Below, piece by piece: positions 1 through 64,000 of a DNA stretch of 64,000 nt; the first letter of the stretch is position 1; every line of letters starts with the position of its first letter. The stretch covers positions 53 through 64,052 of IMG/VR virus record IMGVR_UViG_3300048086_000013, one strand, 5' to 3'. This DNA comes from a virus (taxonomy: Duplodnaviria > Caudoviricetes). A model generated the notes under the pieces. It made no database searches. It was given only the letters and a program-made list of their open reading frames with translations, and was not told the DNA's origin. The translations under genes and the position numbers were made by a program.

Positions 1-75
1 CACCGCCTAGCAGGCTTTTTTAAGCTGGAGGCAGTCCGACCCGATGGCACCAAGCGCTTGTTAGCCGACTGGTTC
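1..75. repeat. Terminal direct repeat copy 1 (identical to 63926-64000); circular or terminally redundant assembly
   Basis: caccgcctag...gactggttc (75 bp) is repeated exactly at the window end, and the reading frame continues across the join. Confidence 0.95.
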
Positions 76-870
76 CCGAACCTGATTCTCAATCAGGGGC
101 TGAATCGTATCGGCGCTAGCAGCGACTGGTTGCAATCTTGTCGGGTCGGTACAGGCAATACGACGCCTACCAACACTGACACCAACCTCGTTGCTCACGT
201 GGCGGGGACTACCACCCAATCCGCCCAAACGACTTCGGCTACCGGCTCACCGCCGTATTATGGGTATTCACAAAGGACCTTTCGTTTCGATCAGGGGGCA
301 GCCGCTGGCAATCTCGCTGAGGTTGGCGTTGGTTGGTCGAATGCCGATGCGTCTAACTTGTTCAGCCGTGCGCTGATTCTCGATGGAGATGGCGATCCGG
401 CCGTTGTTACCGTGCAAGCGGATGAGTTTCTCGACGTGTCGTACGAGCTGCGTTCGTATTCTCCTGACGCTGATGTCGATACTACGGTCACCATCGGCGG
501 CGACAGCTACGACATCACAGCGCGTGCGGCCAATGCGAATTCGTCGCTCTGGGCTCCACCGGCAGCGGCTGGCTTTAACACGGGCGTTGCGTATAGCGGC
601 GCCATCGGTGCGGTCACGTCATCGCCGACTGGTTCGCAAAGCAGCGTCAGTGGGCTCACCACCGATGCCTATAGTAATGACTCGTTCCAGATTGACTCCA
701 CACATACATGGGGACTGGATAGGGGGAACTTCGTCGGTGGAATTGCTTCTTTCTATGTTCAGTTCGGCATGGGGTCTATGCAGTATTCAGTCGACCCGCC
801 CATTCCCAAGGACGCCACGATGGTCCTTGCGATGCGCTTCCGTCACTCGTGGGCACGTAAGACGCTCTAA
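1..870 (+). CDS. Virion/tail structural protein, 3' part; the gene starts at ATG 63905 and wraps the join
   Basis: Open frame 1 from base 1 to TAA 870; joins MNTIEIQHRLAGFFKLEAVRPDGTKR from 63905; Thr/Gly/Ser-rich; lies in the tail operon. Confidence 0.8.
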   Translation, partial: HRLAGFFKLEAVRPDGTKRLLADWFPNLILNQGLNRIGASSDWLQSCRVGTGNTTPTNTDTNLVAHVAGTTTQSAQTTSATGSPPYYGYSQRTFRFDQGAAAGNLAEVGVGWSNADASNLFSRALILDGDGDPAVVTVQADEFLDVSYELRSYSPDADVDTTVTIGGDSYDITARAANANSSLWAPPAAAGFNTGVAYSGAIGAVTSSPTGSQSSVSGLTTDAYSNDSFQIDSTHTWGLDRGNFVGGIASFYVQFGMGSMQYSVDPPIPKDATMVLAMRFRHSWARKTL

Positions 871-1457
871 TGGCACTACCCGGCAACGTCCTATCTACCG
901 ATACGTCGCACGACGATTTCATTTCGCCTCGTGACGTTCCGAAGACGCTGATCCAAGATTATGAGATTGGAGGCGTTGCGCTGGCTGATCCATCGCAAGG
1001 GCTGAACGTGAAGACGTGGCGTGCGTTCATCGACGACGCTGGTACGACGATCAAGTTGGAAGCGACGGGCGTCCTTACGACGACGCAGATCACTGGCACG
1101 GAGATCACGGAAGTCAGTCTCTCCTTCGATCAGAACATGCGCCCAGTGATTGCGTTCGTCGACTCTGGTGTGGCGAAGTTCCGCTGGTTCGACTCGCTGG
1201 TATCCAACTTTGTCACGACGACGCTCACCAGCGCCAAGAACCCTCGGGTATGCCTCGACGATAAGCGGGCACAGACGCTCGGATCAAGTGACGTGATCCT
1301 TGCCTATCTACTCGCCGACGCCTTGGTTATGCGCATGCAGCGTGATCGCTACACCGTTGCGTACGAATTGGATGACGAGATTGAAGACCGCGACCTCTTG
1401 CAGATCGGCATGAACAAGAGGAACCGGTTCCAGTTTCAGTTGCAGGTGAGCCCATGA
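870..1457 (+). CDS. Putative tail protein
   Basis: 195 aa ORF, start overlaps the previous stop, tail operon context. Confidence 0.65.
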   Translation: MALPGNVLSTDTSHDDFISPRDVPKTLIQDYEIGGVALADPSQGLNVKTWRAFIDDAGTTIKLEATGVLTTTQITGTEITEVSLSFDQNMRPVIAFVDSGVAKFRWFDSLVSNFVTTTLTSAKNPRVCLDDKRAQTLGSSDVILAYLLADALVMRMQRDRYTVAYELDDEIEDRDLLQIGMNKRNRFQFQLQVSP

Positions 1458-3286
1458 CCGCACTCAAGCTCGAAGGCTTCATGGGATTGGTCCCTCGTGT
1501 GTCGGACCGCCTGCTTCCCAACATGTGTGCCACAACGGCTCGCAATACCAAACTCCTGTCTGGAGAGGCTCGTGGGTTTCGCGTCCCGCGCCAAGTCAAA
1601 GACCTCACCAACGAGTACTTTACGGTCCGGCGCGTCTACCGCATTCCGTACATCGAGTACGATGAGGAGCTGTCGTTCTGGCTGGCGTTCGACTCGCGCA
1701 ACGTCGACATCGTGCGCTCGCCGCTCGTCAACGATGCCTACGACCGCTACTACTGGGCAGGTGATGGCGCACCGAAGTACAACACTTTCGCGCGCATGCT
1801 CAACGGTGATCCGGAGCTGTTGTTAGGCATTCCCACGCCGACTGCCGTACCCATCGTGACTCCGCCCGGTGCCGGTATCGACACTACGCGCTCCTATCTA
1901 TATACGTTTGTCAGCGAGTTCGGCGAAGAGGGCGCTCCCTCACCGCCGTCCGATGTGCAGGTTGCCGCCGCTGGAACGTGGGTCATCACGGGCATGCAGA
2001 CCGTTGTCCCTCAGGCCAGTCAGCGCCGCGTCACGCGTAAGCGCATCTACCGCACCGTCCCCGGCAACGCTGGCACGATGTTCTTCTTCGTTGCTGAGGT
2101 TCCGATTGCGGATACGAGTTATAACGACTCGGCGACTGATGACGTGGTGGCGCTGAACAACATCCTCGAATCGACGAGCTTCCAGCCGCCGCCGTCGAAT
2201 CTCGAAGGCTTCGTCGTGATGCCGAACGGCTATCTAGTCGGATGGGTCGGTCGGCGCCTCGTGTTCAGTGAGCCGTTCCGTGCACACGCGTGGCCTCCTG
2301 AGTACGAGATCGGTACCGAGTTCGAGATCGTGGCGCTGGCGGTGTGGGGAAACTCCCTCGTCGTGGGTACCAAGTCGAACCCGTACATCGGCATGGGTGT
2401 GACTCCTGCATCATTCACCATGCAGAAGACCGATGCGGTCATGCCTTGCCTGTCTCGCCGTGGAATGGTGGCCTCGGACGCTGGCGTGTACTACCCGTCG
2501 ATCAACGGGCTCGTCGTCGTGAACTCGCCAACGCCGCAGGTGGTGACGCAGGACCTGCTCACCAAGGAAGAGTGGACGCGTCGATACAACCCGAAAGATA
2601 TCTATGCGACTAGCTACGGCATGCAGTACATCGCATTCAACCAGCCGTCGTTCGGGTTCATCTTCAACCCGACTGAGCCTGCTTCACGCCTCGTGGAACT
2701 GGATCGCTTCGATCACGTGGAAGGCATCGACACGGATCGGTATGACGGCACGGTTTACCTGATCTATGACGACCGGGTGTGGGAGTGGGACCCGGAAGGT
2801 TCCGAGCGTCTGTACTGGCGCTGGAAGTCCAAGAAGTTCCATCTGCCGAAGCCGTTGAATTTCGGCGCGCTCAAGATCAAGTTCAACGACGAAGACGAGG
2901 ATGTTAGCGCGGACGTGCTGGCCTATTACAAGCCGTACAACGATGCGCGCTTCGCTGCTGGTCCACTGAACACGATCAACGGACACGTGATCGATGGTGT
3001 GGAAGGCGCTGGTCAGGTCGCTGGCTGGACCGAGCCCGAGAACATGTTCCCTATCGGCGGCGACAGCCTCTATCCACTCAACTTCATGCTGACGCAGGGA
3101 TCGTCCGTGCGCTTTATCATGTACGCGAACGATGAGATCGTTTTCGACACCATCGTGCAGAACCAGAACATGGTTCGCCTGCCTGCTGGCTTCAAGCGCG
3201 ATGTCTACCAATTCGAGATGATTAGCGCCAGCGAAGTGTTCTCCGCGTCGATTGCTGAAACCGGCAAGGAATTGGCGAAGCTCTAA
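1454..3286 (+). CDS. Tail nozzle/stabilisation protein (T7 gp12 / P22 gp10-like, beta-propeller type)
   Basis: 610 aa; N-terminal F.GLVPRVSDRLLP..A..A.N, LVFSEPF..HAWP, W.W.SK.F patterns typical of podovirus nozzle proteins; ATGA coupling. Confidence 0.7.
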   Translation: MTALKLEGFMGLVPRVSDRLLPNMCATTARNTKLLSGEARGFRVPRQVKDLTNEYFTVRRVYRIPYIEYDEELSFWLAFDSRNVDIVRSPLVNDAYDRYYWAGDGAPKYNTFARMLNGDPELLLGIPTPTAVPIVTPPGAGIDTTRSYLYTFVSEFGEEGAPSPPSDVQVAAAGTWVITGMQTVVPQASQRRVTRKRIYRTVPGNAGTMFFFVAEVPIADTSYNDSATDDVVALNNILESTSFQPPPSNLEGFVVMPNGYLVGWVGRRLVFSEPFRAHAWPPEYEIGTEFEIVALAVWGNSLVVGTKSNPYIGMGVTPASFTMQKTDAVMPCLSRRGMVASDAGVYYPSINGLVVVNSPTPQVVTQDLLTKEEWTRRYNPKDIYATSYGMQYIAFNQPSFGFIFNPTEPASRLVELDRFDHVEGIDTDRYDGTVYLIYDDRVWEWDPEGSERLYWRWKSKKFHLPKPLNFGALKIKFNDEDEDVSADVLAYYKPYNDARFAAGPLNTINGHVIDGVEGAGQVAGWTEPENMFPIGGDSLYPLNFMLTQGSSVRFIMYANDEIVFDTIVQNQNMVRLPAGFKRDVYQFEMISASEVFSASIAETGKELAKL

Positions 3287-3951
3287 TGGCTCTTAAGCTC
3301 AAAGGCAACCGCAAATATCCGACGATTCCGCCCGTCAAGCATGACTTGGCGAATCACACGGATACGATCATGGCGATCAAAGAGGCCATGGAAGTCGGGC
3401 AGCGCCGGACTAACAACCTCTTTTACTCGTTCATCACCGTGCAGGATTTGCTGGACCTCGGGCTCATTGACCTGAAGGGAAACACGCAGTCCATCGTCGG
3501 TGCGGACCTCTCGCAGATTGCCAACATTGGTGACCTGAGTGGCTCGGCCACTGGAGATTTCCTGCGCTACAACGGCACGGTGTGGATCAACGATCAGATT
3601 CACCTTGGCGATATCACGCAGGGCATGGTCACGCAGCACGAAGCCGCGCTCACCATTTCGTGGAGCCAGCTCACCGGTATTCCGCCGCTCGGTGAAGCTA
3701 ACGACGGCCTGAATGTCGGCTACGGCGCTGGCGTGTTCAAGGACAAGGTTGGACTCGACCTGCGGTTCAAGACTCTCGTTGAAGGCGCCAACATCACCAT
3801 CGTTGAAGACGACGATGAGATTACGATCTCGGGCGAGTCTGGCGATGTGGGGCAGTACCGCGAGCCGATGACCGATGGCGACGTGGATGACCCGCAGATT
3901 CTATTTTCCGGTGGCGACTTTGTGTTTGCCCTGCGGGACCTCGTAACATGA
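3286..3951 (+). CDS. Putative tail fibre-associated protein
   Basis: 221 aa; GDFLRYNGTVWIN and LRFKTLVEGANITI fibre-like segments. Confidence 0.55.
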   Translation: MALKLKGNRKYPTIPPVKHDLANHTDTIMAIKEAMEVGQRRTNNLFYSFITVQDLLDLGLIDLKGNTQSIVGADLSQIANIGDLSGSATGDFLRYNGTVWINDQIHLGDITQGMVTQHEAALTISWSQLTGIPPLGEANDGLNVGYGAGVFKDKVGLDLRFKTLVEGANITIVEDDDEITISGESGDVGQYREPMTDGDVDDPQILFSGGDFVFALRDLVT

Positions 3952-4130
3952 GGCACTACGACATTCAGGCGCCGGACATTCACCCGTTCGCGTTCGTGCA
4001 GGATGCGGACCCGGCGCTTGATATAGATAATGGTGTTGGCCCGAACAAGGTGTGGTTTCGGACCACTGACTTTCGAGTGCTGGTGCGGAATGACTACGAT
4101 GATGATTGGATTTTGGTAGGAGGCGACTGA
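3948..4130 (+). CDS. Small virion protein, paralog of the next gene
   Basis: 60 aa; IHP..FV.D.DP.LD..N.VG..K.W...VRND..D.WI shared with 4130-4435. Confidence 0.65.
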   Translation: MRHYDIQAPDIHPFAFVQDADPALDIDNGVGPNKVWFRTTDFRVLVRNDYDDDWILVGGD

Positions 4131-4435
4131 TGGACCATCGTGACCTAACAGGCCCTGCTGCGATCCATCCTGCGTTTTTTGTCAGTGATACGGACCCGTC
4201 TCTCGACGCTGCCAATCATGTGGGGGCGGGGAAGGGCTGGCTCGATACGAGTGAGGCTCCCACGTTGAAGGTTCGCAACGACGCAAACGACGCGTGGATC
4301 ACTGCACTCGGCCCACCGCCTCCTCCGGGCATCGTCATTTCGTTCGCTGAACTAGCTGCTGTGTATATCGCCGCCGCGTTCGATGACTTTGAGTTTTCTG
4401 ATCTCGACTTTACTGAGCTGGAGTACGTCCCATGA
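4130..4435 (+). CDS. Small virion protein, paralog of the previous gene
   Basis: Start ATG 4130 overlaps the previous stop, AGGAGG upstream; shared motif as above. Confidence 0.65.
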   Translation: MDHRDLTGPAAIHPAFFVSDTDPSLDAANHVGAGKGWLDTSEAPTLKVRNDANDAWITALGPPPPPGIVISFAELAAVYIAAAFDDFEFSDLDFTELEYVP

Positions 4436-5406
4436 GCGCAACCCTCACTTGGCACAAGAGCGGTCTCGGTACGAAGACCGGCACCGCCAACGCTAATCTC
4501 ATCACAGACATCAAGAACCTTGTGCTCACCAAGGCGGGAGACGCGGACTTCAAATGGGAGGTCGCAGACTTCAGCACGTCGACTCCGATGTATGTTTCGC
4601 TCAAGCGCAAAGATGCGAGCGACGGCCGTATTTTGTTTGCTATCTGGAGTTCCGCCCCCGCCGCTGTCAACGTTGACATTCTGGATCAGTCGCCGCAGAC
4701 CAGCGTACTTTTTGGCGCGTATTTCCCGAACGGTAATACGGACAGCGCCATCAATCTGGCGGCTGCGAGTGGCGCTATCCTTGGCGACAACACTGGCTGC
4801 ACGAAGGTGGCCACCGGCTACTTCGTTTCGTCCATGTACACGACTAACTACCAGTCGTGGTATTTCGACAGTGAGGAAGGAATGGTCTGGGGGTTCCAAG
4901 ACCCGGGTGGAACACAGACGAACTTCATGATGTTTGGCGATTTGGTTATCGACGACGCTGACAATGTGTACCCATGCGTCGTGGGTGGCGCTAGCGGTTC
5001 CTTGGGTTCCATGGGGAGCAGCTCGCCTCCGTTAGCGTGGACTTCTTCTCCCCCTAGCGCCGGTGCATTTTCGGTGGCCTATGCTCATGTGGTGTACCCA
5101 TCTACTGTGTCGAAGCCTTTCTACCAAGCATTCGCTTGCACAGGTGCTTGGGGGGCGCAGGTGGGTACACCTGACGTGCTCAATGACAGCTCTAACAGCA
5201 AGGTGTACTTCGAACCCATTCCGCTCGTCGGACAAACGAAGGGCCAAGGCATCAAGCTCAAGCTGCGTCAGCTCGCCCTCGGGCCGGGATCAACTTCCGC
5301 CTTCAATTTATACAACGGTACTGGTCCGGTGCCGATGGCATATCAGTGCAACGGCGCCGTTGCTGGCGGTGTTGGGTTCCCCTACGCGGTCAATTTCAAG
5401 CTGTAA
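4432..5406 (+). CDS. Putative tail fibre/receptor-binding or other virion protein
   Basis: 324 aa, Gly/Ser/Thr-rich, last gene of the tail block before lysis. Confidence 0.5.
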   Translation: MSATLTWHKSGLGTKTGTANANLITDIKNLVLTKAGDADFKWEVADFSTSTPMYVSLKRKDASDGRILFAIWSSAPAAVNVDILDQSPQTSVLFGAYFPNGNTDSAINLAAASGAILGDNTGCTKVATGYFVSSMYTTNYQSWYFDSEEGMVWGFQDPGGTQTNFMMFGDLVIDDADNVYPCVVGGASGSLGSMGSSSPPLAWTSSPPSAGAFSVAYAHVVYPSTVSKPFYQAFACTGAWGAQVGTPDVLNDSSNSKVYFEPIPLVGQTKGQGIKLKLRQLALGPGSTSAFNLYNGTGPVPMAYQCNGAVAGGVGFPYAVNFKL

Positions 5407-5407
5407 G

Positions 5408-5436
5408 TTGCTGACACGTGTAGGGAATGGTATATC
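5408..5436 (+). promoter_or_regulatory. Possible sigma70-type promoter for the lysis genes
   Basis: TTGCTG-N17-TATATC with TG extension, followed by a TAGGAG RBS before ATG 5460. Confidence 0.35.
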
Positions 5437-5459
5437 AGCACAACTGTAGGAGCCCTCCG

Positions 5460-5879
5460 ATGCCGAGTTTTAGCACTACGTCTCTGAAGCAGCTCGCGAC
5501 CTGCGATGCGCGTCTCCAAGATGTACTACAGGCCGCGATCTTGCGGGTTGACTTCGTGATTCTCGAAGGGCATCGCAACGAGGTTGACCAGAACGCCGCC
5601 TTCGCTGCCGGGAAGTCGCAGAAGAAGTGGCCCGAAGGGAACCACAATGCGTACCCATCACGTGCGGTCGACATCGCCCCCTATCTACCCGAAGTGAAGA
5701 TCGATTGGAACGATCTCGTCGCGTTCGGACGCCTCATGGGTTACATCCAGTGTCTCGCCGACCAGCGCAACATCAAGTTGCGCTTCGGCCTCGACTGGGA
5801 TGGCGATTGGCGTACGGCGGGCAAGAACGACCCCAACGAGCACTTTCTCGACGCTCCTCACATCGAACTGGTGGGCTGA
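5460..5879 (+). CDS. Endolysin, peptidase M15 (L-Ala-D-Glu peptidase type)
   Basis: EGHR..Q, S..KWPEGNH...AVDI, FGLDW and D.PHIEL zinc-peptidase motifs; start placed at ATG 5460 by the RBS. Confidence 0.85.
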   Translation: MPSFSTTSLKQLATCDARLQDVLQAAILRVDFVILEGHRNEVDQNAAFAAGKSQKKWPEGNHNAYPSRAVDIAPYLPEVKIDWNDLVAFGRLMGYIQCLADQRNIKLRFGLDWDGDWRTAGKNDPNEHFLDAPHIELVG

Positions 5880-5880
5880 C

Positions 5881-6420
5881 ATGGGCAAATTCGACTGGAA
5901 GAAAGTGGTAGGCGCGGTTGCCCCCACCATCGCCACCGCTCTAGGCGGCCCCCTCGCAGGCGTTGCAGTGAAGACCCTCGCAACACAGTTGTTAGGGAAC
6001 TCTGACGCGACCGAAGAGGATGTCGCCGCTGCCGTTGCTGCTGCCGACCCGCAGACGCTGCTCAAGCTCAAGGAGATCGATGCAGAGTTCAAGAAGACGA
6101 TGATCGACGCGGGCGTGAAACTCGAAGAGATTGCCGCCAGTGATCGCAATAGTGCGCGCAATCGAGAAGTGTCCGCTCATGATAGTTGGACGCCGCGCAT
6201 TCTCGCGCTCGTGGTCATCGGTGGATTCATGACGTGTGTGTACGCAATCCTCGGCGGGCACGTGTCTGACCTGAAGGACCCGCTGATCGCGGGGTTGATT
6301 GGAACAATGGTTGGATATACCAGTGCCAAAGCTGACCAAGTGATCAGCTACTACTTCGGCAGCTCGGCATCCTCAAAGTCGAAAGACGAGACGATTTCTA
6401 CCATCGCAAAGATGGAGTAA
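5881..6420 (+). CDS. Putative holin (3TM, GTA-holin-like)
   Basis: APTIATALGGPLAG N-terminus, D...AR.RE, two hydrophobic helices and YYFGSS C-terminal motif; follows the endolysin. Confidence 0.7.
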   Translation: MGKFDWKKVVGAVAPTIATALGGPLAGVAVKTLATQLLGNSDATEEDVAAAVAAADPQTLLKLKEIDAEFKKTMIDAGVKLEEIAASDRNSARNREVSAHDSWTPRILALVVIGGFMTCVYAILGGHVSDLKDPLIAGLIGTMVGYTSAKADQVISYYFGSSASSKSKDETISTIAKME

Positions 6421-6436
6421 GTCATGAGGAGTCCCT

Positions 6437-6853
6437 ATGGAGTGGCTGGAGAAATTGATGGGTGTTGCAACGAACCTGATTCCGCCTATCGATGGGGCAA
6501 CTGACATTCATGTTAGGCGGTGGCGCCTCTGGGTTGCAGGAGTAACATTTGTGAACGCATTCGGACTGACCATTCATATCGCTCTGGCTTGCGGGCTGAT
6601 TCCGTTCTATCCGGGATTCGCCCAAGCTGGTGAAGTGAAAACTACGCAGCAGGCGGTCGACAATCTCGCCAACGAGCTGAAGGCCCAACGCGTCGGCATC
6701 ATCGAGGCCAGCATTCTCGACACGAGGCAGAAGCAATGCGCTTCGCAGCCGGAAGTACGCAGGCTGTACACCGCGTCGCTTCAGAAGCTGCTCATCGAGT
6801 ACCGGAACATTACGAAGAGTGACTACCCCGTACCGGGGTGTGAGGCTTTCTAA
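6437..6853 (+). CDS. Membrane protein in the lysis cassette (possible spanin-like)
   Basis: Hydrophobic segment WLWVAGVTFVNAFGLTIHIALACGLI followed by a coiled-coil-like region. Confidence 0.4.
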   Translation: MEWLEKLMGVATNLIPPIDGATDIHVRRWRLWVAGVTFVNAFGLTIHIALACGLIPFYPGFAQAGEVKTTQQAVDNLANELKAQRVGIIEASILDTRQKQCASQPEVRRLYTASLQKLLIEYRNITKSDYPVPGCEAF

Positions 6854-7365
6854 TGGGCTTCTTCAGCAATCTCGGGAAGTCGCTCAACCCCTTCCAGAAT
6901 CCGGTCAAGGGAGTCAAGAACGCGCTCTCGATGGGGATCGACCCGGCTGGTTCCGTTGTTCGTGCCGGTAAGACGGGGGACATGTCCCCTCACAACGTCA
7001 AGGGCATGTACGATCCGGGCGGGTTCATCGGTGGGGTGCCGCAGGCGGCGCCTAACAGCTATACGCCGCAGCATGTGATGAATCTTTCACCGGCCGCGCA
7101 GCAGATGTACGACGCCATGCAGGCACGCACGGCGGCGCGTAACGCTGGGGTACCATACAACCCGACGCCCTCGGCACCTGTTGTGGCTCCGCAGCTTCCG
7201 CACCGCACGCCGCTCGGGCAGCAGCCCGCGCCGACACAGACCCCGTACGATCCGGGACTGCCGCCACAACAGCTTGCCGATGGCGGCATGGTCGGGCAGG
7301 AATTCGATGGCGACTACTGGGAGAACAAGTCGTTCGAACGGAAGCCCAATGGCAAACCGTACTAA
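6853..7365 (+). CDS. Pro/Gln-rich hypothetical protein with an ADGG motif, possible internal virion protein
   Basis: 170 aa ORF coupled to the previous stop; QQLADGGMVG. Confidence 0.55.
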   Translation: MGFFSNLGKSLNPFQNPVKGVKNALSMGIDPAGSVVRAGKTGDMSPHNVKGMYDPGGFIGGVPQAAPNSYTPQHVMNLSPAAQQMYDAMQARTAARNAGVPYNPTPSAPVVAPQLPHRTPLGQQPAPTQTPYDPGLPPQQLADGGMVGQEFDGDYWENKSFERKPNGKPY

Positions 7366-7812
7366 GTGGCTAGTCAGTACACAGGGTTCACCGACACACC
7401 GGTCCACATTCTCCACGAGTGGCTCCGCGTTCGTATTGGTGTTCCTTGGAGTACTGATTTTCGCTGCCTTGCTCGCGTGGTTCGTGGGGAAATTGTCGGA
7501 TGCGTGGGGTACGAAGGTTTCAACGGTCGGTCGCTCCGCATGCACATGGCAGGCAACCGACATGGATGGCTCAATCGCGAGTTCATCCAACGAGCATTTC
7601 GCTATCCGTTTGTAACGCTCGATCTGCCGATGGTGTTTGGGATTGTGCCGAGCGGGAATCTTGAGGCGCTGAAGATCGACAAGAAGTTAGGGTTCATTGA
7701 ATTACTGTACGTCGAAGGAGCACACGCGGATGGCGGGCTCCACTTTCTGCAACTGACACGTGAAAACTGGTTGAGGACGAAACATGGGAAGCAAAGCACC
7801 CGAAGCGCCTGA
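7366..7812 (+). CDS. GNAT-fold acetyltransferase-like protein preceding the ejection genes (positional analogue of T7 gp13 / P22 gp14)
   Basis: IVGCVGY...MH.AG...WL.REF...FRYPF..L..V.G.V..N..ALK...KLGF pattern. Confidence 0.65.
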   Translation: MASQYTGFTDTPVHILHEWLRVRIGVPWSTDFRCLARVVRGEIVGCVGYEGFNGRSLRMHMAGNRHGWLNREFIQRAFRYPFVTLDLPMVFGIVPSGNLEALKIDKKLGFIELLYVEGAHADGGLHFLQLTRENWLRTKHGKQSTRSA

Positions 7813-9058
7813 TCTCGGCCCAATGGCTGAAGGGTCGGCTGAGTCCGCGCGTATCGCGCAAGAGACCGCGCTCGAACAGCTCGCGTGGGCTCGTGAGCAG
7901 GACACTAACAACCGTCAACTCCTCGACCGTGTAGTCACGGGGCAGGAACAGGTTCAGCAGGACACGCTCCAGAACGCGCAGGAAGATCGGCAGCGCTACG
8001 AGGATATCTACCAGCCGCTGGAAGACAACCTCACTCAAGAATTTCAGAACTACGACTCGCCCGAGCAGCACCAGCAAGATCGCGGCCGTGCGATGTCGGA
8101 TGTCTCGCAGTCCTTCGACGCGGCGCGGCGTAACGCGCTTCAGCGTCTGGAGAGCTACGGCGTTGATCCAAGCCAGACCCGCAACGCTGCGCTCGACATC
8201 GGTACGCGCACGGCGCAAGCCGCTGCGACCGCTGGCGCTGCGTCGGCATCGGATCGTGCGACGACTCAGACCGGTCGCGCGCTGCGCGCCGAAGCCCTGA
8301 ACATCGGCAAAGGATATCCGTCGAACGTGGCGGGCTCGTATGGCCAGTCACTTGCCGCTGGCAACTCGATGGTGGGCAACGCCAACCAAACTACCAACAC
8401 GAGCAGCAACGCGCTTGGCGGTGTGAACGCTGGTCTCGGTACGTCTATTCAAGGTTTCGGTCAGGCTGGCAACACGATGTCGCAGGGCTACGGCAATCAA
8501 ATGCAGCAGTACAACGCCAATCAGGCGACGACGAACGCAGCCATCGGCGCCGTGGGCGGTATTGCTGGCATGTTCATGGCCGATGGTGGCGATGTCCCAT
8601 TCGAGAGCGAGCCGGGGGCAATCGACTTCGGCGAAGGCGATGGCACAGGCATCGACGATCAGGTACCCATCAATGCTTCCAAAGGCGAATACATCATCCC
8701 CGCTGACGTTGTGCGTGCGAAGGGCGAAGAGTTTTTTGACAAGCTGGTCGAACGCTACCACACGCCCGCAGCCGAGCAGCAGGAAGACGAACACACATCG
8801 AATGTGCGTACCGGCCGCGCATTGTCTCCGGTGCCTAACAAGGCCAACGGCGGGCTCACGGGGTTCGGTGGGCCTTCGCGCGTAATGTCTTCGCCGAAGG
8901 CTCCGCCGATGCAGCAGCCGATGGCTCCTCGTCAGGCGATCCCGGCCATGCCTTCTTTCCCGCGCGCAACCACGCCTGCGGCGATGCCGTACCGTTCACC
9001 GATTCAACGCCCGATGGGGCAGCCTGCGCGTCCGCAGTTCGCAGCACGAGGTATCTGA
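7784..9058 (+). CDS. DNA ejection/internal virion protein
   Basis: 424 aa; MGSKAP..PD start, Gln/Ala/Gly-rich helical body, ADGG...G.G.DDQVP..ASKGEYIIPADVV domain. Confidence 0.65.
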   Translation: MGSKAPEAPDLGPMAEGSAESARIAQETALEQLAWAREQDTNNRQLLDRVVTGQEQVQQDTLQNAQEDRQRYEDIYQPLEDNLTQEFQNYDSPEQHQQDRGRAMSDVSQSFDAARRNALQRLESYGVDPSQTRNAALDIGTRTAQAAATAGAASASDRATTQTGRALRAEALNIGKGYPSNVAGSYGQSLAAGNSMVGNANQTTNTSSNALGGVNAGLGTSIQGFGQAGNTMSQGYGNQMQQYNANQATTNAAIGAVGGIAGMFMADGGDVPFESEPGAIDFGEGDGTGIDDQVPINASKGEYIIPADVVRAKGEEFFDKLVERYHTPAAEQQEDEHTSNVRTGRALSPVPNKANGGLTGFGGPSRVMSSPKAPPMQQPMAPRQAIPAMPSFPRATTPAAMPYRSPIQRPMGQPARPQFAARGI

Positions 9059-9061
9059 GCC

Positions 9062-11059: not shown

Positions 11060-11060
11060 C

Positions 11061-46591: not shown

Positions 46592-46599
46592 GAGGAACC

Positions 46600-46773: not shown

Positions 46774-46800
46774 AAAAGCCGCCCGGTTGAGGGGGCGGCT
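46772..46800. terminator. Hairpin with an upstream A-tract (possible terminator or insulator before the glyco cluster)
   Basis: AAAAA-AGCCGCCC...GGGCGGCT. Confidence 0.4.
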
Positions 46801-46831
46801 GAAAGTAGAGACATCCGGGAGGGAGAGTACC

Positions 46832-51755: not shown

Positions 51756-51757
51756 GC

Positions 51758-53400: not shown

Positions 53401-53908
53401 CGACGGGAGCTGCGAGGCTCTTTCCGTCGATGACGAGTTTCTCTGCGCCGCCGCCGAGATTGATGTTCAGTACAAAGCCGCCGCCAGCAGGAACTACGCC
53501 GCCTTCGCCGGACTTCGCCGTACGGCCAGCGAGCTGGGCTAACAACTTCCCGGCGTCGATCTTCGCCTGCGCGGGGGTGTCGTTGCTGTGGATCATCGTG
53601 TCGTACGCCGGGATGGCGTCCTCGATCACGATGTCGGCTTTCATCTGGATGCGGGCGCCAGCGTTGGTGTCACCGCGCATTTTGGTGACGGCCTCAGCGA
53701 GCATGCCGCGAAAGACCGGGGAGCGTTTGAGGGTATCCCATTGAGCGTCGCTGATGGAGTAACGCTCGCGGATCGCCGCGCCGTCTGACAATCCTGCTGC
53801 CAGCTCAGCGGCGATATGCGCATTGAGTGAGGAGAGATCGAGACTGGCGTCGGTGCCGGGAATCGTGACCTGCGTCGATGAAGTCTTCGGGGCAACCCGA
53901 GCGTTCAT
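53393..53908 (-). CDS. terS: Putative terminase small subunit
   Basis: Helical 171 aa directly upstream of terL; C-terminal FVLNINLGG. Confidence 0.65.
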   Translation of the reverse strand: MNARVAPKTSSTQVTIPGTDASLDLSSLNAHIAAELAAGLSDGAAIRERYSISDAQWDTLKRSPVFRGMLAEAVTKMRGDTNAGARIQMKADIVIEDAIPAYDTMIHSNDTPAQAKIDAGKLLAQLAGRTAKSGEGGVVPAGGGFVLNINLGGGAEKLVIDGKSLAAPVDE

Positions 53909-53987
53909 TTGGCAATCCTGTTGTGAGAATTTGACTACGGCTTCATTTTTATAGTAAATCGCTCCCAGAAATCAAGGAGTTCTGCCT

Positions 53988-56117: not shown

Positions 56118-56289
56118 GTTAGGCCCTCGCGCGAAGCGGATCGCTGAGCGGGAGCTTCGAGGCGAGCTTGAGAATGAGTACACGGCAAAAATCCGTGAGC
56201 AGTTCAAGCAGTCAGGGATCAAGAATGCGCGGGCAGCGCTCGGATGGATGCAGCGGCGACCACTCGCCAAAGCCGTAGGAGAGAAGTGA
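56107..56289 (+). CDS. 60-aa basic hypothetical protein
   Basis: GTG start overlapping the portal end; stop coupled to the next ATG. Confidence 0.45.
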   Translation: MPVKLGPRAKRIAERELRGELENEYTAKIREQFKQSGIKNARAALGWMQRRPLAKAVGEK

Positions 56290-56552
56290 TGGTTCGTCGA
56301 ACGCACAAGTACGCTGATGGCGGCAAGGTCGTGAAGGACTGGGGCGATGGTCGACCGAAAGTCGGACCTGCCGATCCGGCGACGCGGCGCAAGTTCCTCG
56401 ATCAGCGCCTGAGCGAGACCGAGCCGCTTCGTACGCGCGGGCCGGGCCAGACGCCCGCAGCAACACCGGCCGAGGGCGTCAGCCCTAACACCATGCGTCT
56501 GCTCAAGACACGTGGCGCCAAACTCAACAAAGCAATCGACGACAACTCGTAG
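56289..56552 (+). CDS. Small head-region protein, paralog of the next gene (YADGG motif)
   Basis: MVRRTHKYADGGKVVKD...LNKAIDD. Confidence 0.65.
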   Translation: MVRRTHKYADGGKVVKDWGDGRPKVGPADPATRRKFLDQRLSETEPLRTRGPGQTPAATPAEGVSPNTMRLLKTRGAKLNKAIDDNS

Positions 56553-56560
56553 GAGCAGAC

Positions 56561-56815
56561 ATGGTTCGCCGAGCACACAGTTACGCCGATGGTGGGAAGA
56601 TCGTGAAGGATCAGTCCGCCGAGTACGAACAGCCGACTTACATGGACGCGGTGAAAGATCGCGTCGGTGAGCTGTTCACGCGCAAGAAGAAAAAGGCGGC
56701 GCCCGCAGCTCCCGCAGCTCCCGCAGCTCCCGCGCCAGCCGCGAAACCGAAGTCCGTACTTCAGGGCGGACGCAAGGCGCAGCTCGATAAGGCCATCGAA
56801 GACGCCGGGGGCTAG
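56561..56815 (+). CDS. Small head-region protein, paralog of the previous gene (YADGG motif)
   Basis: MVRRAHSYADGGKIVKD...LDKAIED; AGGAG RBS. Confidence 0.7.
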   Translation: MVRRAHSYADGGKIVKDQSAEYEQPTYMDAVKDRVGELFTRKKKKAAPAAPAAPAAPAPAAKPKSVLQGGRKAQLDKAIEDAGG

Positions 56816-56877
56816 TAGTTGTAGGACCTTTCAGGATACGATTGTCAAGCGTTTCCGACACGTGGTAGGAGATCGAA

Positions 56878-57132
56878 ATGGGTATCAACGGTAAGTTCAT
56901 CGGTGACACGAAGGGCAACGCCAACCTGAAGCCGTGCTTGAGCGACGGCGGGATGGGCGGTGCGGGCGAGTCCCACTCGGGTGCTCCGTCATCCAAGTTC
57001 ATCGGCCCGACCAAGGGCAACACCGATCTGAAGATCGACCGCACGAGCGGTGTGAAGGCGGACATGGGCGGCGCCTACAAAGCAGGCCGCAACGGCAAGC
57101 CGTTCACCGGCAACACCGAAGGCCCGCCGTAA
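56878..57132 (+). CDS. Gly-rich small protein with an internal duplication
   Basis: KFIGDTKGNANLK / KFIGPTKGNTDLK; AGGAG RBS. Confidence 0.65.
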   Translation: MGINGKFIGDTKGNANLKPCLSDGGMGGAGESHSGAPSSKFIGPTKGNTDLKIDRTSGVKADMGGAYKAGRNGKPFTGNTEGPP

Positions 57133-57347
57133 TGGCCAAGCCAAAGAAGCTCATCGCAGAGAAGAATCTCTCCGGGCTCGGCGGCGTGGCGGATGTGTCG
57201 TTCGGCGATGCGACACCCGAGCGCCGCGCGCAACGTGACTTCAGCAAGGAAGGAATTCCCGAGCCGAACCACGATGCGTTCGACGACTACAACGAGCGCA
57301 TGGAGCGCTGGGATTCCGGCAAGTTCGGGATTCTGACGAATCGATGA
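57132..57347 (+). CDS. Hypothetical protein
   Basis: TAATG coupling. Confidence 0.55.
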   Translation: MAKPKKLIAEKNLSGLGGVADVSFGDATPERRAQRDFSKEGIPEPNHDAFDDYNERMERWDSGKFGILTNR

Positions 57348-57589
57348 AGACGAGCCCGCAAACTGTTCAGGCCATGGTGAACTTGCGGGCCAATCGCGAC
57401 TTCGAAGCATTCATTGGAGGTCTGAAGGAATACGAGGCTGAACTAACTACTCGCTGTGTCGACGGAAGTGGAGAAATCCAGCTCCGAGCGGCAGGCGGCG
57501 TGAAAGCGCTGCAAGCAGTGATCAAGGCGTTCGCCGATGCTCCTTCGACTCTCGTGAAAATGAAATCAACCCCACAACAGGTGAAGTGA
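57344..57589 (+). CDS. Hypothetical pre-scaffold protein
   Basis: 81 aa helical, ATGA coupled. Confidence 0.6.
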   Translation: MKTSPQTVQAMVNLRANRDFEAFIGGLKEYEAELTTRCVDGSGEIQLRAAGGVKALQAVIKAFADAPSTLVKMKSTPQQVK

Positions 57590-57597
57590 GAATACGC

Positions 57598-58725
57598 ATG
57601 AGCGCTCTCCCGAAAGCAGTCCAGCGACAGATCGACCAAGCTAACAAGGTGGCCGATTCCTACTACAAGACGTTGGCCGAAGGCGGACTCCCGCAGAAGC
57701 CAGCCGATGGAGAGGCCCCGCCTCCTGACGCCGCTGCTATCGCCGCAGCAGAAGCCGCCGCAGCAGCCGCTGCCGCCGCAGCCGCAGCTCCACCGCCTGA
57801 TGCAGCCGCCGCAGCAGCAGCCGCAGCCGCCGCGACTCAGCTTCCTCAGCAGGAGTGGGAGCAGAAGTACAAAGTTCTGCAAGGCAAGTACAACGCGGAA
57901 GTTCCGCGCTTGCAGAACACCGTCCGTACCCTCACCGAGCAGCAGCGCAACATGGCCGAACAACTTTCGGCCACGCAGACGTTGCTCGCCTCGCTTGGCA
58001 ATCAGCAGGCCGCGCCGCCTGCTGGCTCACAGCCGCGCACGCCTGCGCAGCCCGTGAGGCTTGTCAAAGACGAAGAGGTCAAGGAATTTGGTGCAGACCT
58101 GATTGATGTCAGTCGCCGTGTCGCACGAGAGGAAATCTCTGCGGCCGTGGAAGCTGAAGTCAATAAGCGTATGCAGCCAGTCACGCAGCAGGCAACTCAA
58201 GCAGCTCAGGTTGCTGCGGGAGCCGCACAGCGTGTCGCGCAGAATGACCGGCAGGTGGTCTTCGAAATGCTCGATGCACAGGTCCCCACTTGGACCGAGA
58301 TCAACAAGGACCAAGCGTTCCTTGAGTGGCTCGAACAGGTGGACCCGTACGCAGGGCATCGTCGGGGCGACTTGTTAGGGCAGGCGTTCAAGTCCAACAA
58401 CGGACCGCGCGTTGTTGCGTTCTTCAATGGATTCCTGAAGGAACACGCCATTGTGACTCCTCCGGCTCCGCCCGCTGCCGCCGCTGCCCCCGCAGCCGCT
58501 GCACCACAGGTGGCTCTGGAGAAACTCGTCACGCCCGGTCTACCAAAGACCGGAGCTGCTGGCACTCAAGATGGGTCTGGTAAGCGGGTTTGGACCCGCG
58601 CCGAAATCTCCAAGTTCTACGCAGACAAATCTGCCGGTCGGTTCAATTCCGATACCGGCAAGAAGAAAGCGGCGGACATGGAGGCTGACATCTTCGCGGC
58701 TCAGCGCGAAGGGCGCGTTCGCTAA
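57598..58725 (+). CDS. Capsid scaffolding protein
   Basis: WEQKYKVLQGKYNAEVPRL coiled coil, F..WL...DPY.G, C-terminal I..A.REGRVR; directly before the capsid gene. Confidence 0.75.
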   Translation: MSALPKAVQRQIDQANKVADSYYKTLAEGGLPQKPADGEAPPPDAAAIAAAEAAAAAAAAAAAAPPPDAAAAAAAAAAATQLPQQEWEQKYKVLQGKYNAEVPRLQNTVRTLTEQQRNMAEQLSATQTLLASLGNQQAAPPAGSQPRTPAQPVRLVKDEEVKEFGADLIDVSRRVAREEISAAVEAEVNKRMQPVTQQATQAAQVAAGAAQRVAQNDRQVVFEMLDAQVPTWTEINKDQAFLEWLEQVDPYAGHRRGDLLGQAFKSNNGPRVVAFFNGFLKEHAIVTPPAPPAAAAAPAAAAPQVALEKLVTPGLPKTGAAGTQDGSGKRVWTRAEISKFYADKSAGRFNSDTGKKKAADMEADIFAAQREGRVR

Positions 58726-58751
58726 CCTTTCTCTTCTAGGAGTTACAAGTC

Positions 58752-59747
58752 ATGCCGTTTCCCGTTACTGGCAGTTCCACTTGGGACGGCAACGTACGGT
58801 CGAACCCGACCCTCGTTGCTGGTGGATTCATTCCCGAAATCTGGTCGGGCAAGTTGCTCGAAAAGTTCTACGCGGCGACCGTTCTTGCGGCCATCGCGAA
58901 CACCGACTACGAAGGTGAGATCAAGAACAAGGGCGACACCGTGCACATTCGCACGCGTCCGACCATCACCATCGCTGACTACGAGGCCGAACAGGACCTC
59001 GCGATCCAGCGTCCGTCGAGCAACATGATCGATCTCTCCATCGATCAGGCGAAGTACTTCAACCTCGCACTCGATGACGTGATGGAAGTGCAGGCCGATC
59101 TCGATCTCATGAGCATGTGGGCGGAAGACGCCTCCGAGCAGATGAAGATCGCAATCGACACCGATGTGCTCGCCTATCTCGGCACGACCACGGACATCGC
59201 TGCGGCGAATCGTGGTGCGACCGCAGGCGCGCTGTCGGCCAGCATCCCGCTGGGCACCGCTGCCTCTCCCGTGTTCGTTGCGAAGTCCTCGCAGGGCACC
59301 GGTGTCGGTAACGACGTGTCGAACGACAAGTCGATCCTCGACTTCATCGTGGACGCGGGTCAGGTGCTCGACGAGCAGAACATCCCGGAAACGGGTCGTT
59401 GGATGGTCATCCCGGCGTGGGTCGCCTCGATGATCAAGAAGTCGGACCTGAAGGACGCCTCCCTCGCGGGTGACGGTACTTCGATCCTGCGCAACGGCCG
59501 TCTGGGCATGATCGACCGGTTCACGCTGTACCTGTCGAACCTGCTGCCGACGCTCGACTCGGCTGTGGACACCACGTCGGTGTTCTTCGGCACGAAGGCG
59601 GCGCTGACCTTCGCAGCGCAGTTCACCAAGATGGAGACGATTCGTTCGGAACGCTCCTTCTCCAACCTGCTCCGTGGCCTTCAGGTCTACGGTTTCCGGG
59701 TGGTGAACGGCGTGTCGATGGGTCGCGCAGTCATCGCGCGGGGCTGA
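58752..59747 (+). CDS. Major capsid protein
   Basis: FIPEIWSGKLL..FY, NTDYEGEI..KGDTVHI, VP..GRW.VIP, G.LG.IDRF, RG...YG motifs; strong terminator downstream. Confidence 0.9.
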   Translation: MPFPVTGSSTWDGNVRSNPTLVAGGFIPEIWSGKLLEKFYAATVLAAIANTDYEGEIKNKGDTVHIRTRPTITIADYEAEQDLAIQRPSSNMIDLSIDQAKYFNLALDDVMEVQADLDLMSMWAEDASEQMKIAIDTDVLAYLGTTTDIAAANRGATAGALSASIPLGTAASPVFVAKSSQGTGVGNDVSNDKSILDFIVDAGQVLDEQNIPETGRWMVIPAWVASMIKKSDLKDASLAGDGTSILRNGRLGMIDRFTLYLSNLLPTLDSAVDTTSVFFGTKAALTFAAQFTKMETIRSERSFSNLLRGLQVYGFRVVNGVSMGRAVIARG

Positions 59748-59762
59748 TCCCTGAAGTGACCT

Positions 59763-59795
59763 CCCCCTCCGGGCTAACTACCCGGAGGGGGTTTT
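59763..59795 (+). terminator. Rho-independent terminator after the capsid gene
   Basis: CCCCCTCCGGG-N7-CCCGGAGGGGG-TTTT. Confidence 0.85.
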
Positions 59796-59805
59796 CGGGG
59801 GTTTC

Positions 59806-60216
59806 ATGGCCAAGACTTGGCAGAATGTAGTCGACGAAGCGCGCGTAATCCTCCAAGACGTGGATACTGCGCAGCGCTATACCGACGTGATGCTTCTCGC
59901 GAAGCTGAACCGGGGGCTGCAAGAGCTTGCGCGCTTGCGGCCTGATGCTTTTTGGGAGTTCTTCAGCGTCGATGACGTGAAGGTCCCCGAAGTGGTGGTC
60001 ATTGATTCCGATCCGGACGATGAACCAGAAGAATTTGATGAGCTGGAAGACGCGCAGATCGCGACTTCCGCCAACTTCAATCTACCGATGATGTTCTATA
60101 CAGCGTTGGTGTACTGGGTCTCCGCCAGTGCCGAGCTGATCGACGACGAGTACACCGATGACGGGCGCACCGCGCTCCTCATGACACAGTTCAAAACGAT
60201 GGTGATCTCCCTGTGA
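59806..60216 (+). CDS. Head-tail adaptor-like virion protein
   Basis: V..AR.IL.D....RY.D..LL..LN......RLRPD pattern. Confidence 0.65.
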   Translation: MAKTWQNVVDEARVILQDVDTAQRYTDVMLLAKLNRGLQELARLRPDAFWEFFSVDDVKVPEVVVIDSDPDDEPEEFDELEDAQIATSANFNLPMMFYTALVYWVSASAELIDDEYTDDGRTALLMTQFKTMVISL

Positions 60217-60881
60217 GTACCGACAACATCACCGTCGAAGGTTCCGGCCACGAGTGCGACGTGAAGCTCGATACGTGGCTGCGCGACATGCTCGCCGTTA
60301 CACCGGGCTGTCTCCCCAAGGTCCGCAAGCGTGCGCTGATCCTCGCCTGCCGCGAGTTCTTCGAGCAGTCTGCAGCATGGCGCGCGACCATCGGCCCGCG
60401 AGCGCTGCTGGCTAACAAGAAGCGCTACTACATGTCGCCTTTCGACGCGTACGCGAACGTGGTGCGCGTGCTCGCGGTGGACTACAAGGGCACACCCCTC
60501 AAGATCGTCACGGCCCGCCCACCCGGCGTGGAGCCCAATGCGACGAACCCTATCTACGCGTTTCTCGAAGGCGCCGATCAGGTGCGCATCTGGCCGATGT
60601 CGAATGCGAACGTGGCCAACGCGCTGACCTTCTATGTGGCGCTGACCCCCAAACAAACAGTGACGCATCTGCCGCGCATTGCGGCGACGCACTTCTACGA
60701 CGCTATCTACGACGGCGCGCTCGGACGGTTGTTCTCTCAGCCAGCGAAGCCATACTCAAACCCCACGCTCGCCACGTACCACTTGAACCGGTTTCGGGCG
60801 GCGATTGGAAAGTACGCTGGAGCTGCAAAGGGCGGCTTTGCGAATGCGCCGTCGTGGGTCTTCCCCCGGTTCGGGAAGTGA
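60213..60881 (+). CDS. Putative tail adaptor/tubular protein
   Basis: ACREFFEQS..W, I..GAL.RL..P.KPYSNP.LA pattern. Confidence 0.65.
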   Translation: MSTDNITVEGSGHECDVKLDTWLRDMLAVTPGCLPKVRKRALILACREFFEQSAAWRATIGPRALLANKKRYYMSPFDAYANVVRVLAVDYKGTPLKIVTARPPGVEPNATNPIYAFLEGADQVRIWPMSNANVANALTFYVALTPKQTVTHLPRIAATHFYDAIYDGALGRLFSQPAKPYSNPTLATYHLNRFRAAIGKYAGAAKGGFANAPSWVFPRFGK

Positions 60882-62866: not shown

Positions 62867-63199
62867 ATGGCTGACTCACGACAGCACATGTTTACGAACA
62901 ACGCATCGTCGTCCCTTGCGGCGGCGATCAATGATTCGCAGACGACGATTACTCTGGAGACTGGTGAGGGAGATCGCTTCCCGGAACTCGTCGGCGCCCA
63001 GATTTTTGTGTTGACCGTGGTGAACCTGACAACTGGTGATCGCGAGATCATGAATGTAACGGCGCGGGTCAACGATACGCTCACGGTCGAGCGTGGCTGT
63101 GAGGACACCGATCCTGTGGAGTTCGCCGCTGGCGCGCTTGCGCAGTTGCGCGTGTCGGCGGATACCCTTCACTACTTTCAGGAGTTGTTAGGTGGCTGA
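62867..63199 (+). CDS. Tail protein consisting of the shared N-terminal domain only
   Basis: FTNNASSSL..AI...TTI....G..FP...EIM.VTAR..DTLTVERG.E.T. Confidence 0.65.
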   Translation: MADSRQHMFTNNASSSLAAAINDSQTTITLETGEGDRFPELVGAQIFVLTVVNLTTGDREIMNVTARVNDTLTVERGCEDTDPVEFAAGALAQLRVSADTLHYFQELLGG

Positions 63200-63908
63200 G
63201 GAGCGCCTCTTCAAGTTCACCAATGCTGGTGTAACCACGCTTTCGGCGGGCATCAACAACTCCGTGACCTCAATTTCGGTCACGAGCGGTGCAGTGCTGC
63301 CTGATCCTGCGGATGGTGAGATCGCGACGTTGGTCTTGCGCGACAACGCGAATTCCAAGTTCGAGATCATGAACATCACTGCGCGCACGGGGAACAATCT
63401 CACGGTCGAGCGCGGCGCGGAAGGCACCACTGCCGAAGCATGGGCCAACGGGACAAAAGTCGAGAATTCACTCACTGCTGCGTTCTTCATCAAGCTCGCG
63501 ACGCCGAGCGCAGCCATGTTCCGCACATCGAAGCCTTACCCGATCACTGTTCTCGAAGCTCTGGATGGCCTCGCAACTCTGAGGGGCGCGCAACCAAGCT
63601 ATAGTTTGGTGGGTGATGATCGGGCGGAAGCAGTCGACAATCTGGCTTCAATGCTCGAAGGTACCCTCGACGTGGTGCTTGTCACGTATAGCGACGGGGC
63701 GCCGGAGGCAATCGACAATACTGCCGAGATGCTATCTGGTGATCTCGACTCGGTGCTGGTCTCGTACGAAGATGGGCTGCCGGAGGCAATCGACAACTTT
63801 GGTTCGATGCTGTCAGGCGAACTCGATGTGGTTCTGGTGACATACCCGAACTCTCAAGTGGAAGCCATCGACAACACCGGCTCTATTCTTTCTGGAGACT
63901 TGACATGA
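63192..63908 (+). CDS. Tail protein with the shared N-terminal domain and 26-aa C-terminal repeats
   Basis: Same N-terminal domain; four EA(I/V)DN...ML.G.LD.VLV.Y repeats. Confidence 0.7.
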   Translation: MAEERLFKFTNAGVTTLSAGINNSVTSISVTSGAVLPDPADGEIATLVLRDNANSKFEIMNITARTGNNLTVERGAEGTTAEAWANGTKVENSLTAAFFIKLATPSAAMFRTSKPYPITVLEALDGLATLRGAQPSYSLVGDDRAEAVDNLASMLEGTLDVVLVTYSDGAPEAIDNTAEMLSGDLDSVLVSYEDGLPEAIDNFGSMLSGELDVVLVTYPNSQVEAIDNTGSILSGDLT

Positions 63909-64000
63909 ACACCATCGAGATTCAGCACCGCCTAGCAGGCTTTTTTAAGCTGGAGGCAGTCCGACCCGATGGCACCAAGCGCTTGTTAGCCGACTGGTTC
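63905..64000 (+). CDS. 5' part of the tail gene that continues at 1-870
   Basis: ATGA overlap, GGAG RBS, frame continuous through the terminal repeat. Confidence 0.8.
   Translation, partial: MNTIEIQHRLAGFFKLEAVRPDGTKRLLADWF
63926..64000. repeat. Terminal direct repeat copy 2 (identical to 1-75)
   Basis: Exact match to bases 1-75. Confidence 0.95.

Follow-up and report, generated by a model that had tools for sequence, protein, structure and literature searches.

The word TTGTTAG is written across the genome of a soil podophage and a subclade of its relatives, largely through synonymous codons, and may be a host-linked mark read on duplex DNA

The window analyzed here is a stretch of 64,000 bp corresponding to the 64,052-bp virus record IMGVR_UViG_3300048086_000013 minus 52 bases, and it holds the nearly complete genome of a Bcep22/SU10-like podophage whose DNA was recovered from a soil metagenome. 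The ends of the record share a 127-nt direct repeat that corresponds to assembly overlap, indicating a circular assembly (Table 1). Gene calling yielded 87 genes, with 94% of the window being coding, and the encoded products include an SU10-type portal, a T4-type terminase, a family A DNA polymerase, a DUF927 primase-helicase, an SNF2 helicase, a PDDEXK exonuclease and a virion protein of 2,584 amino acids (aa). The virion protein encoded near the start of the window shares ~31% identity with proteins of Bcep22, BcepIL02, DC1, Ralstonia GP4 and Pseudomonas Itty13. A DNA search of a public phage collection for relatives of the window returned no match, and no RNA run was present among the listed holders of its DNA. 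Dispersed throughout this genome is a short asymmetric word, TGTTAG (complement, CTAACA), most often extended to TTGTTAG. The initial annotation, made by eye from the sequence, had reported about 100 copies of this word, genome-wide, in both orientations and in all modules; 107 were counted, the positions it listed are correct to within one base, and the copies are evenly spread, with 58 on one strand and 49 on the other.

Copies of the hexamer occur on average every 603 bp, and its family tops by far the over-represented 6-, 7- and 8-mers of the window. Dinucleotide shuffles of the window produce 11.7±3.4 hexamers (maximum 26) and 2.4±1.6 heptamers, against 107 and 71 observed, and a second-order Markov model predicts 7.8 and 1.8, respectively. 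The initial annotation had also proposed that the word reflects selection on the DNA, and had pointed to codon-preserving shuffles and to the location of TTA codons as the means of checking it. Synonymous codons were shuffled within each gene, a procedure that leaves unchanged the encoded proteins, the codon usage of each gene (with its inflated TTA count) and the 12 copies located between genes. Across 300 such shuffles the word appears 27.0±3.6 times as a hexamer (maximum 38) and 14.8±2.2 times as a heptamer (maximum 21), and the observed counts exceed this codon-preserving expectation by more than 20 standard deviations. The TTA codon is rare outside the word, and 46 of the 82 TTA codons (56%) lie inside it; a tRNA for TTA was not found in the window. 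Where the word is read as xTG-TTA-G, 34 of 46 copies start with TTG, even though CTG is twice as common a leucine codon as TTG overall. The copies at 59 and 63984 are a single site duplicated by the terminal overlap, leaving 106 unique hexamers and 70 unique heptamers, and a position table places the information content in TGTTAG plus a preferred preceding T (70 of 106 copies), ending at 7 nt. An independent Logan assembly of a public soil-metagenome run contains a 63,955-nt contig, at depth 19, that shows no difference from the window over the 20 kb compared; the remaining contigs of this run measure 151 letters, as short-read data would give. The record may derive from this run.

The distribution of the word among related phages is restricted to a subclade. 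A sister phage, represented by a Logan contig of 63,610 nt from run SRR21686422, is related to the window at 76% nucleotide identity (87% in the portal and 82% in the DNA polymerase proteins) and carries 104 copies of TGTTAG, 69 of them as TTGTTAG, in the 57.6 kb recovered. Three short contigs from three other runs (75-79% nucleotide identity; the runs with such phages include SRR26786799, SRR26786855 and SRR30224782) present 6 (4.4 kb), 2 (2.2 kb) and 3 (3.2 kb) copies. Relatives in IMG/VR with portal identities of 66-83% contain 0-3 copies, and this includes a complete genome of 64,256 bp. The closest word-less relatives reach 79-82% identity in the portal and 77% in the DNA polymerase, and G001, G002, L060 and L064 harbor 3, 1, 2 and 3 copies, those of L060 (82% portal identity) lying in 22 kb and those of L064 (77% polymerase identity) in 18 kb. 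Conservation in related phages, which the initial annotation had raised as a check, thus holds for the sister and the three contigs and fails in the other close relatives. Several genes of the sister are at least as distant from those of the window as their counterparts in word-less relatives: terminase identity is 67% in all, and a 610-aa virion protein is 78% identical to that of the window in the sister and in the word-less G002 alike. The word is therefore not merely the mark of a recent common descent of every gene.

Individual sites turn over between the two word-rich genomes. Of 59 alignable window sites, 26 (44%) are shared with the sister, compared to a baseline of 25% for any hexamer (P=0.0013). 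At sites that are not shared the sister differs at two to five of the six letters, and one-letter variants occur at only 3 of the 59 homologous sister positions, versus an expected 32%; some site gains carry an amino-acid change. The combination of similar totals in both genomes and the sharing of only 44% of sites implies that density and coverage, rather than position, are maintained. Existing sites are moderately conserved and new ones have been gained repeatedly.

Within genes, the word makes use of all four frames that avoid a stop codon (46 copies as xTG-TTA-G, 15 as xxT-GTT-AG, 8 as CTA-ACA and 26 as xCT-AAC-A), and no copies are found in the two frames that would generate an in-frame stop. 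The remaining 12 copies are intergenic and fall in ~4 kb, about twice the coding density. There are 61 sense and 34 antisense genic copies, but saturation is equal once codon capacity is taken into account. In the window, the hexamer is written at 37% of [LMV]L[GAVDE] tripeptides in the sense orientation and at 34% of [SPTA]N[IMTNKSR] in the antisense orientation, and the heptamer at 55% of both LL[GAVDE] (as TTGTTAG) and [SPTA]N[NK] (as CTAACAA). In the sister, the hexamer occupies 32% of sense and 39% of antisense contexts, and the heptamer 43% and 80%, respectively. In word-less relatives saturation is 0-5%, with the small L064 locus reaching 18% and 3/7; word-compatible tripeptides are slightly commoner in the window than in relatives. 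Equal saturation of sense and antisense contexts indicates a signal read on double-stranded DNA and not on RNA, and it rules out an RNA-level or translational signal acting through the rare TTA codon. Homologous positions show the same writing at the level of single sites (Table 1), either as purely synonymous recoding, as in one portal gene site, or with an amino-acid change, as in a window-only site where the sister DNA departs from the word at three of six letters (five of ten displayed). The proposal that selection acts on the DNA and not on the protein is hence borne out by four lines of evidence: the codon-shuffle excess, the equal strand saturation, the denser intergenic copies and the synonymous recoding relative to homologues.

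The arrangement of the word along the genome is also non-random. Orientation is balanced in the sister (54:50) as it is in the window, with no switch along the genome, and spacing is more even than expected by chance, with a coefficient of variation (CV) of 0.77 versus 0.98 (P=0.004). The largest gap between copies (2,041 bp) is shorter than the expected 3.1 kb (P=0.012). This gap lies over the major capsid gene, where the sister presents a gap of 1.9 kb as well; considered alone, the absence of the word from the capsid gene is not significant (P ~0.06).

A second word, TAGATAG, accompanies the first (Table 1). It is present in each of the three short word-bearing contigs and absent from 153 kb of word-less relatives. 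Of its 18 genic copies 17 are antisense, an excess that is expected because the sense orientation places a TAG stop in two of three frames. Several other heptamers of the form TxGyTAG recur in both the window and the sister (Table 1), and TTGATAG is not enriched among them. Judging from this set of variants, both words look like targets of a single reader whose site is degenerate (T[T/A]GNTAG), and two separate systems seem less likely.

Restriction-site avoidance is very heavy in the window and changes together with the word. Fourteen six-base palindromes are absent from the window despite 14-71 expected copies each: CGATCG, GCCGGC, CCGCGG, CAGCTG, CTCGAG, GAGCTC, GACGTC, GGATCC, AGATCT, ATGCAT, AGGCCT, GGGCCC and two rarer ones. 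The sister shows the same loss of the 14, with two copies of CGATCG against 69 expected. Two of these palindromes, CGATCG and GCCGGC, split word-bearing from word-less clades. The former is missing from the window (71 copies expected) and from the three short contigs, and is kept at ~1 per kb in all seven word-less relatives; the latter is absent from all five word-bearing sequences. The word thus co-segregates with a changed pattern of avoidance. Restriction-site avoidance mirrors the enzymes of the host, and a change in CGATCG and GCCGGC avoidance at the same node as the word therefore places the word-bearing clade in a different host background. This comparison points to the word having arisen together with a host change. 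The initial annotation had recognized the word itself; its confinement to a subclade, the turnover of its sites, TAGATAG and the avoidance of CGATCG had gone unnoticed there. Avoidance patterns vary between clades of the family: CTCGAG is enriched in the relatives L007 and L020 (30 versus 8 and 50 versus 17 expected copies).

Table 1. Features of the 64,000-bp window and heptamer counts in the window and the sister phage.
Feature	Position in window	Strand	Description
Dispersed word (T)TGTTAG / CTAACA(A)	1..64000	both	107 hexamers (58 +, 49 -), 71 as TTGTTAG
Second word TAGATAG(G) / (C)CTATCTA	891..60709	both	21 copies, ~1 expected
Terminal direct repeat	1-75 and 63926-64000		shared by the record ends
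Virion protein gene	1454-3286		homologues in Bcep22 and other phages
Antisense copy of the word	9129..9135	-	Ala-Asn-Lys GCT-AAC-AAA; conserved in sister
PDDEXK/RecB-like exonuclease gene	27181-27846		also in word-less relatives
Early palindrome TCACACASTGTGTGA	31869-43670		9 copies
Early gene	38560-39006		window and sister only
Early gene	40997-41344		window and sister only
Early gene, 227-aa protein	41992..42675	-	weak XRE-type helix-turn-helix resemblance; 46% identical in sister, nearly absent from G001; otherwise window and sister only
Early gene	43232-43624		window and sister only
Gene for 123-aa protein	46044-46415		sub-threshold Methylase_S match
Window-only site with amino-acid change	54588..54594	+	Leu-Leu-Glu; Met-Leu-Thr in word-less relatives
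Pure synonymous writing, portal gene	54846..54852	+	Leu-Leu-Ala TTG-TTA-GCT in window and sister; CTG-CTC-GCG in word-less relative
Largest word-free stretch	58379..60411	+	spans major capsid gene (58752-59747): 11 usable codon contexts, 0 copies
TTGTTAG (TxGyTAG heptamer count)			71 window, 69 sister
TAGATAG (TxGyTAG heptamer count)			21 window, 18 sister
TTGGTAG (TxGyTAG heptamer count)			12 window, 9 sister
TTGCTAG (TxGyTAG heptamer count)			11 window, 12 sister
TAGTTAG (TxGyTAG heptamer count)			7 window, 8 sister

A literature search found no paper describing TTGTTAG, and the word was compared with known systems of abundant short sites. In anatomy, its closest match is the uptake sequences, that is, the uptake signal sequences (USS) of the Pasteurellaceae and the DNA uptake sequences (DUS) of the Neisseriaceae, which are likewise short, asymmetric, lineage-specific, present at ~1 per kb in both orientations with a spacing more even than chance, and placed for the most part within genes, at positions encoding peptides that can accommodate them. 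The word matches their density, orientation and evenness, and its writing into codons is comparable, with 32-55% of compatible tripeptides saturated (43-80% in heptamer contexts). USS and DUS differ in their length of 9-12 nt, in residing in competent bacteria, in having a known reader in the uptake machinery and in accumulating via transformation, whereas the word spans 6-7 nt and is carried by a phage that is probably lytic and has no known uptake; no inverted pairs of the terminator kind were observed. In logic, the closest parallel is the enrichment of Chi in phages. Chi sites in E. coli phage LLS, P1 and P. aeruginosa MD8 resemble the word in being host-specific, asymmetric, far above expectation, absent from close relatives, enriched beyond codon usage and subject to gain and loss (PMC12315714). 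In the published Chi-rich phages, however, the 23-32 sites point almost exclusively the same way and are concentrated towards one end (PMC12315714), in contrast to ~106 sites of balanced orientation and even spread. Known Chi sequences are G-rich, whereas the word is rich in A and T and contains stop triplets. The Chi-like signal suggested in the initial annotation is weakened by this balance and even spread, and a Chi-like role would require breaks to arise at any point along the genome.

The HIP1 element of cyanobacteria (GCGATCGC) is hyperabundant, lineage-specific and written through codon choice, with unknown function, but it is a palindromic octamer of bacterial chromosomes, whereas the word is asymmetric and found in a phage; CGATCG, the HIP1 core, is completely avoided in the window. 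The stoperators of cluster A mycobacteriophages also consist of dozens of asymmetric sites dispersed over a phage genome, genes included. They are 13 bp long, number ~25-35, are bound by the phage repressor and are co-oriented with transcription, unlike a word of 6-7 bp and ~106 copies that follows no orientation rule (61 sense and 34 antisense genic copies) and saturates both strands equally. Stoperators, as well as methylation sites, are poorer models for the word than uptake sequences or Chi.

The word is confirmed and more striking than first described, and a host-linked identity word is the best-supported reading. In its specific form, a mark imposed by the host on duplex DNA and of the Chi or uptake-sequence type, this reading is our preferred one, though it remains tentative. 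Under it, the phage clade would have acquired the word on moving onto a particular host lineage, where a host factor scanning double-stranded DNA would recognize T[T/A]GNTAG, with TTGTTAG as the best and TAGATAG as the next-best site. DNA bearing the word at ~1 per 600 bp, in either orientation, would fare better, most likely because a self/non-self or DNA-processing machine of the host spares or favors tagged DNA; candidate machines would be a Chi-type control of a helicase-nuclease, or a preference of the uptake or recombination type. Selection would then keep density and even coverage rather than individual sites, with writing mainly at silent codon positions. Both the encoding of the reader by the host and its mode of action are inferred here. 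A host-encoded reader is tentatively favored over a phage-encoded one, since the large enzyme genes of the window are common to word-less relatives (the PDDEXK/RecB-like exonuclease and SNF2 helicase among them) and the clade-only genes are unassigned small open reading frames (ORFs), an endolysin gene and its neighbor.

Several observations weigh against a host-imposed word. Known Chi-rich phages are one-sided and end-clustered (20:3 and 32:0), as opposed to the balanced, even distribution seen here (PMC12315714). A screen of 770 bacterial genomes, comprising a 401-genome class sample around a Salinisphaera genome, two orders and the metagenome-assembled genomes (MAGs) holding relatives, revealed no word-rich genome and did not identify the host; the background level of the heptamer in typical bacteria with a comparable G+C content is about one per 100 kb, below that of the reversed sequence used as a control. 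Any of the several small early genes that the window has in common with the sister alone could encode a phage reader. Finally, we know of no reason for a probably lytic phage to need an uptake-type tag.

Hyperabundant short words, such as Chi, uptake sequences and HIP1, are rare, and each one that is understood has revealed a machine that reads DNA identity. The present case is an unusually clean one, in which word-bearing and word-less phages are near-identical in gene set, half of the codon contexts are saturated, individual sites come and go, and restriction-site avoidance provides an independent mark of a host change. A phage genome of 64 kb is far easier to recode and test than a bacterial chromosome, and may thus provide a tractable route to the reader of the word. 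The clade could also show whether phages copy the genomic watermark of a host to escape defense, and the word might serve as a sequence-only marker linking uncultured phages to their hosts. A bolder proposal, which we regard as speculative and rather unlikely, is that TTGTTAG is the signal of an undescribed, horizontally spread DNA-reading system marking 'own' DNA in scattered lineages, and that the phage clade, by rewriting about half of its usable codon contexts, carries the mark of its host and passes as self; if true, phages would mimic their host in a new way, through a word written across the genome.

The foremost alternative, which we also consider unlikely, is a reader encoded by the phage: a small clade-specific protein, for instance an early protein of the helix-turn-helix (HTH) type, that binds T[T/A]GNTAG along the whole chromosome. 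The role of such a protein could be to coat or compact the DNA, to mark or protect it, or to organize replication or packaging, with sites selected for coverage, and strand-symmetric, evenly spaced sites would suit a structural DNA binder. Homologues in word-less relatives exist for all genes encoding at least 200 aa, apart from tail and early genes without a known function. The set of genes restricted to the window and the sister consists of an endolysin gene, its neighbor and several small early ORFs without Pfam or PHROG function (Table 1), one of which, encoding the 227-aa protein, is weakly XRE-type HTH-like. Searches of the clade-specific ORFs against Pfam, PHROGs and Atlas returned only the endolysin, a DUF6283-like similarity and this weak HTH lead; a 179-aa protein of the same set proved to be widespread in the phage family. 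No candidate has been linked to the word, and the 227-aa protein, although a candidate DNA binder, most likely serves an early palindrome, TCACACASTGTGTGA. Moreover, the candidates are 46-71% identical between the window and the sister, yet the word is the same in both, and a phage reader leaves the change in CGATCG and GCCGGC avoidance at the same node unexplained. A half-site of phage operators was ruled out as the origin of the word, the early palindrome being TCACACASTGTGTGA. In relatives, the enriched 7-mers are their own operator palindromes and are confined to early regions. The same region of relatives (L010 1272-13661; L032 797-6978) contains TTACACCGGTGTAA in G001 and TAATCCCATGGGATTA in a Sericytochromatia-binned contig, and regulator and operator specificities look as though they have been swapped within one phage family.

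Molecular drive is less probable than a phage-encoded reader. Here, a bias in host repair, recombination or uptake would turn near-matches into the word in any resident DNA, raising its frequency in chromosome and phages alike without benefit to the phage. Uptake sequences may build up by drive alone, the similar densities in the window (~1 per 600 bp) and the sister (~1 per 550 bp) are as expected at equilibrium, and the rarity of one-letter variants at homologous sites is in line with such a conversion. Genome-wide, however, no depletion of one-letter neighbors is seen, and some exceed expectation (AGTTAG, 18 versus 4; TGCTAG, 20 versus 4), new sites lie several letters away from the homologous sequence, and the even spacing suggests function. 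Deamination, or a one-step drive of the very-short-patch (VSP) type, was discarded, as the neighbors are too few to supply ~95 extra copies and are not depleted, and the differences from homologues involve several bases.

It is improbable, to a greater degree than drive, that the word is the target of a host or phage DNA modification enzyme for which more sites would mean more protective marks. TGTTAG does have the form of Type III, bacteriophage exclusion (BREX) and MmeI-family sites, with six asymmetric bases and an A at position 5, a likeness of form only, and the 14 absent palindromes indicate a phage under strong restriction pressure. Phages are nevertheless normally selected to lose such sites and not to gain them, and a DNA methyltransferase unique to the word-bearing phages was not detected. 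The involvement of the methyl- and glycosyltransferases of the phage, as put forward in the initial annotation, is not supported: the sugar/methyl transferase cluster is present at 40-78% identity in word-less relatives, and was hence ruled out as a cause. A 123-aa protein of the window gives a sub-threshold match to Methylase_S (Type I restriction specificity, E=0.0024) and has homologues in word-less relatives.

That the word arises from an artefact, or simply follows from composition or biased codon pairing, as the rarity of TTA outside the word might at first have hinted, is almost certainly not the case, given that the short-read Logan contig is identical and contigs of four other sequencing runs carry the word (which rules out basecalling and assembly artefacts), that codon-shuffle controls are exceeded (which rules out codon and codon-pair bias), that antisense and intergenic copies exist, and that relatives encode the same amino acids otherwise at homologous positions, so that no error process can be responsible; no support for it remains. 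A resemblance to the integron attC core (GTTRRRY) was dismissed for want of any supporting structure or context.

Regarding the lifestyle of the phage, portal homologues with 37-66% identity are found inside large bacterial contigs, namely a Pseudolabrys MAG (L016/L017), Myxococcales (L025) and a Salinisphaera chromosome (L044), and one 465-kb Pseudolabrys contig holds two portal homologues of the phage family. This embedding indicates that part of the family is temperate. The nearest relatives of the window are seen only on ~64-kb contigs, and the window phage is probably lytic. Genes resembling anti-defense genes are present in relatives, with a Tad2-like gene in the sister (L059 2570-2881) and an Acb5-family gene in a word-less relative (L064 8449-8748); they sit in the variable region upstream of the sugar/methyl transferase cluster and in the replication module.

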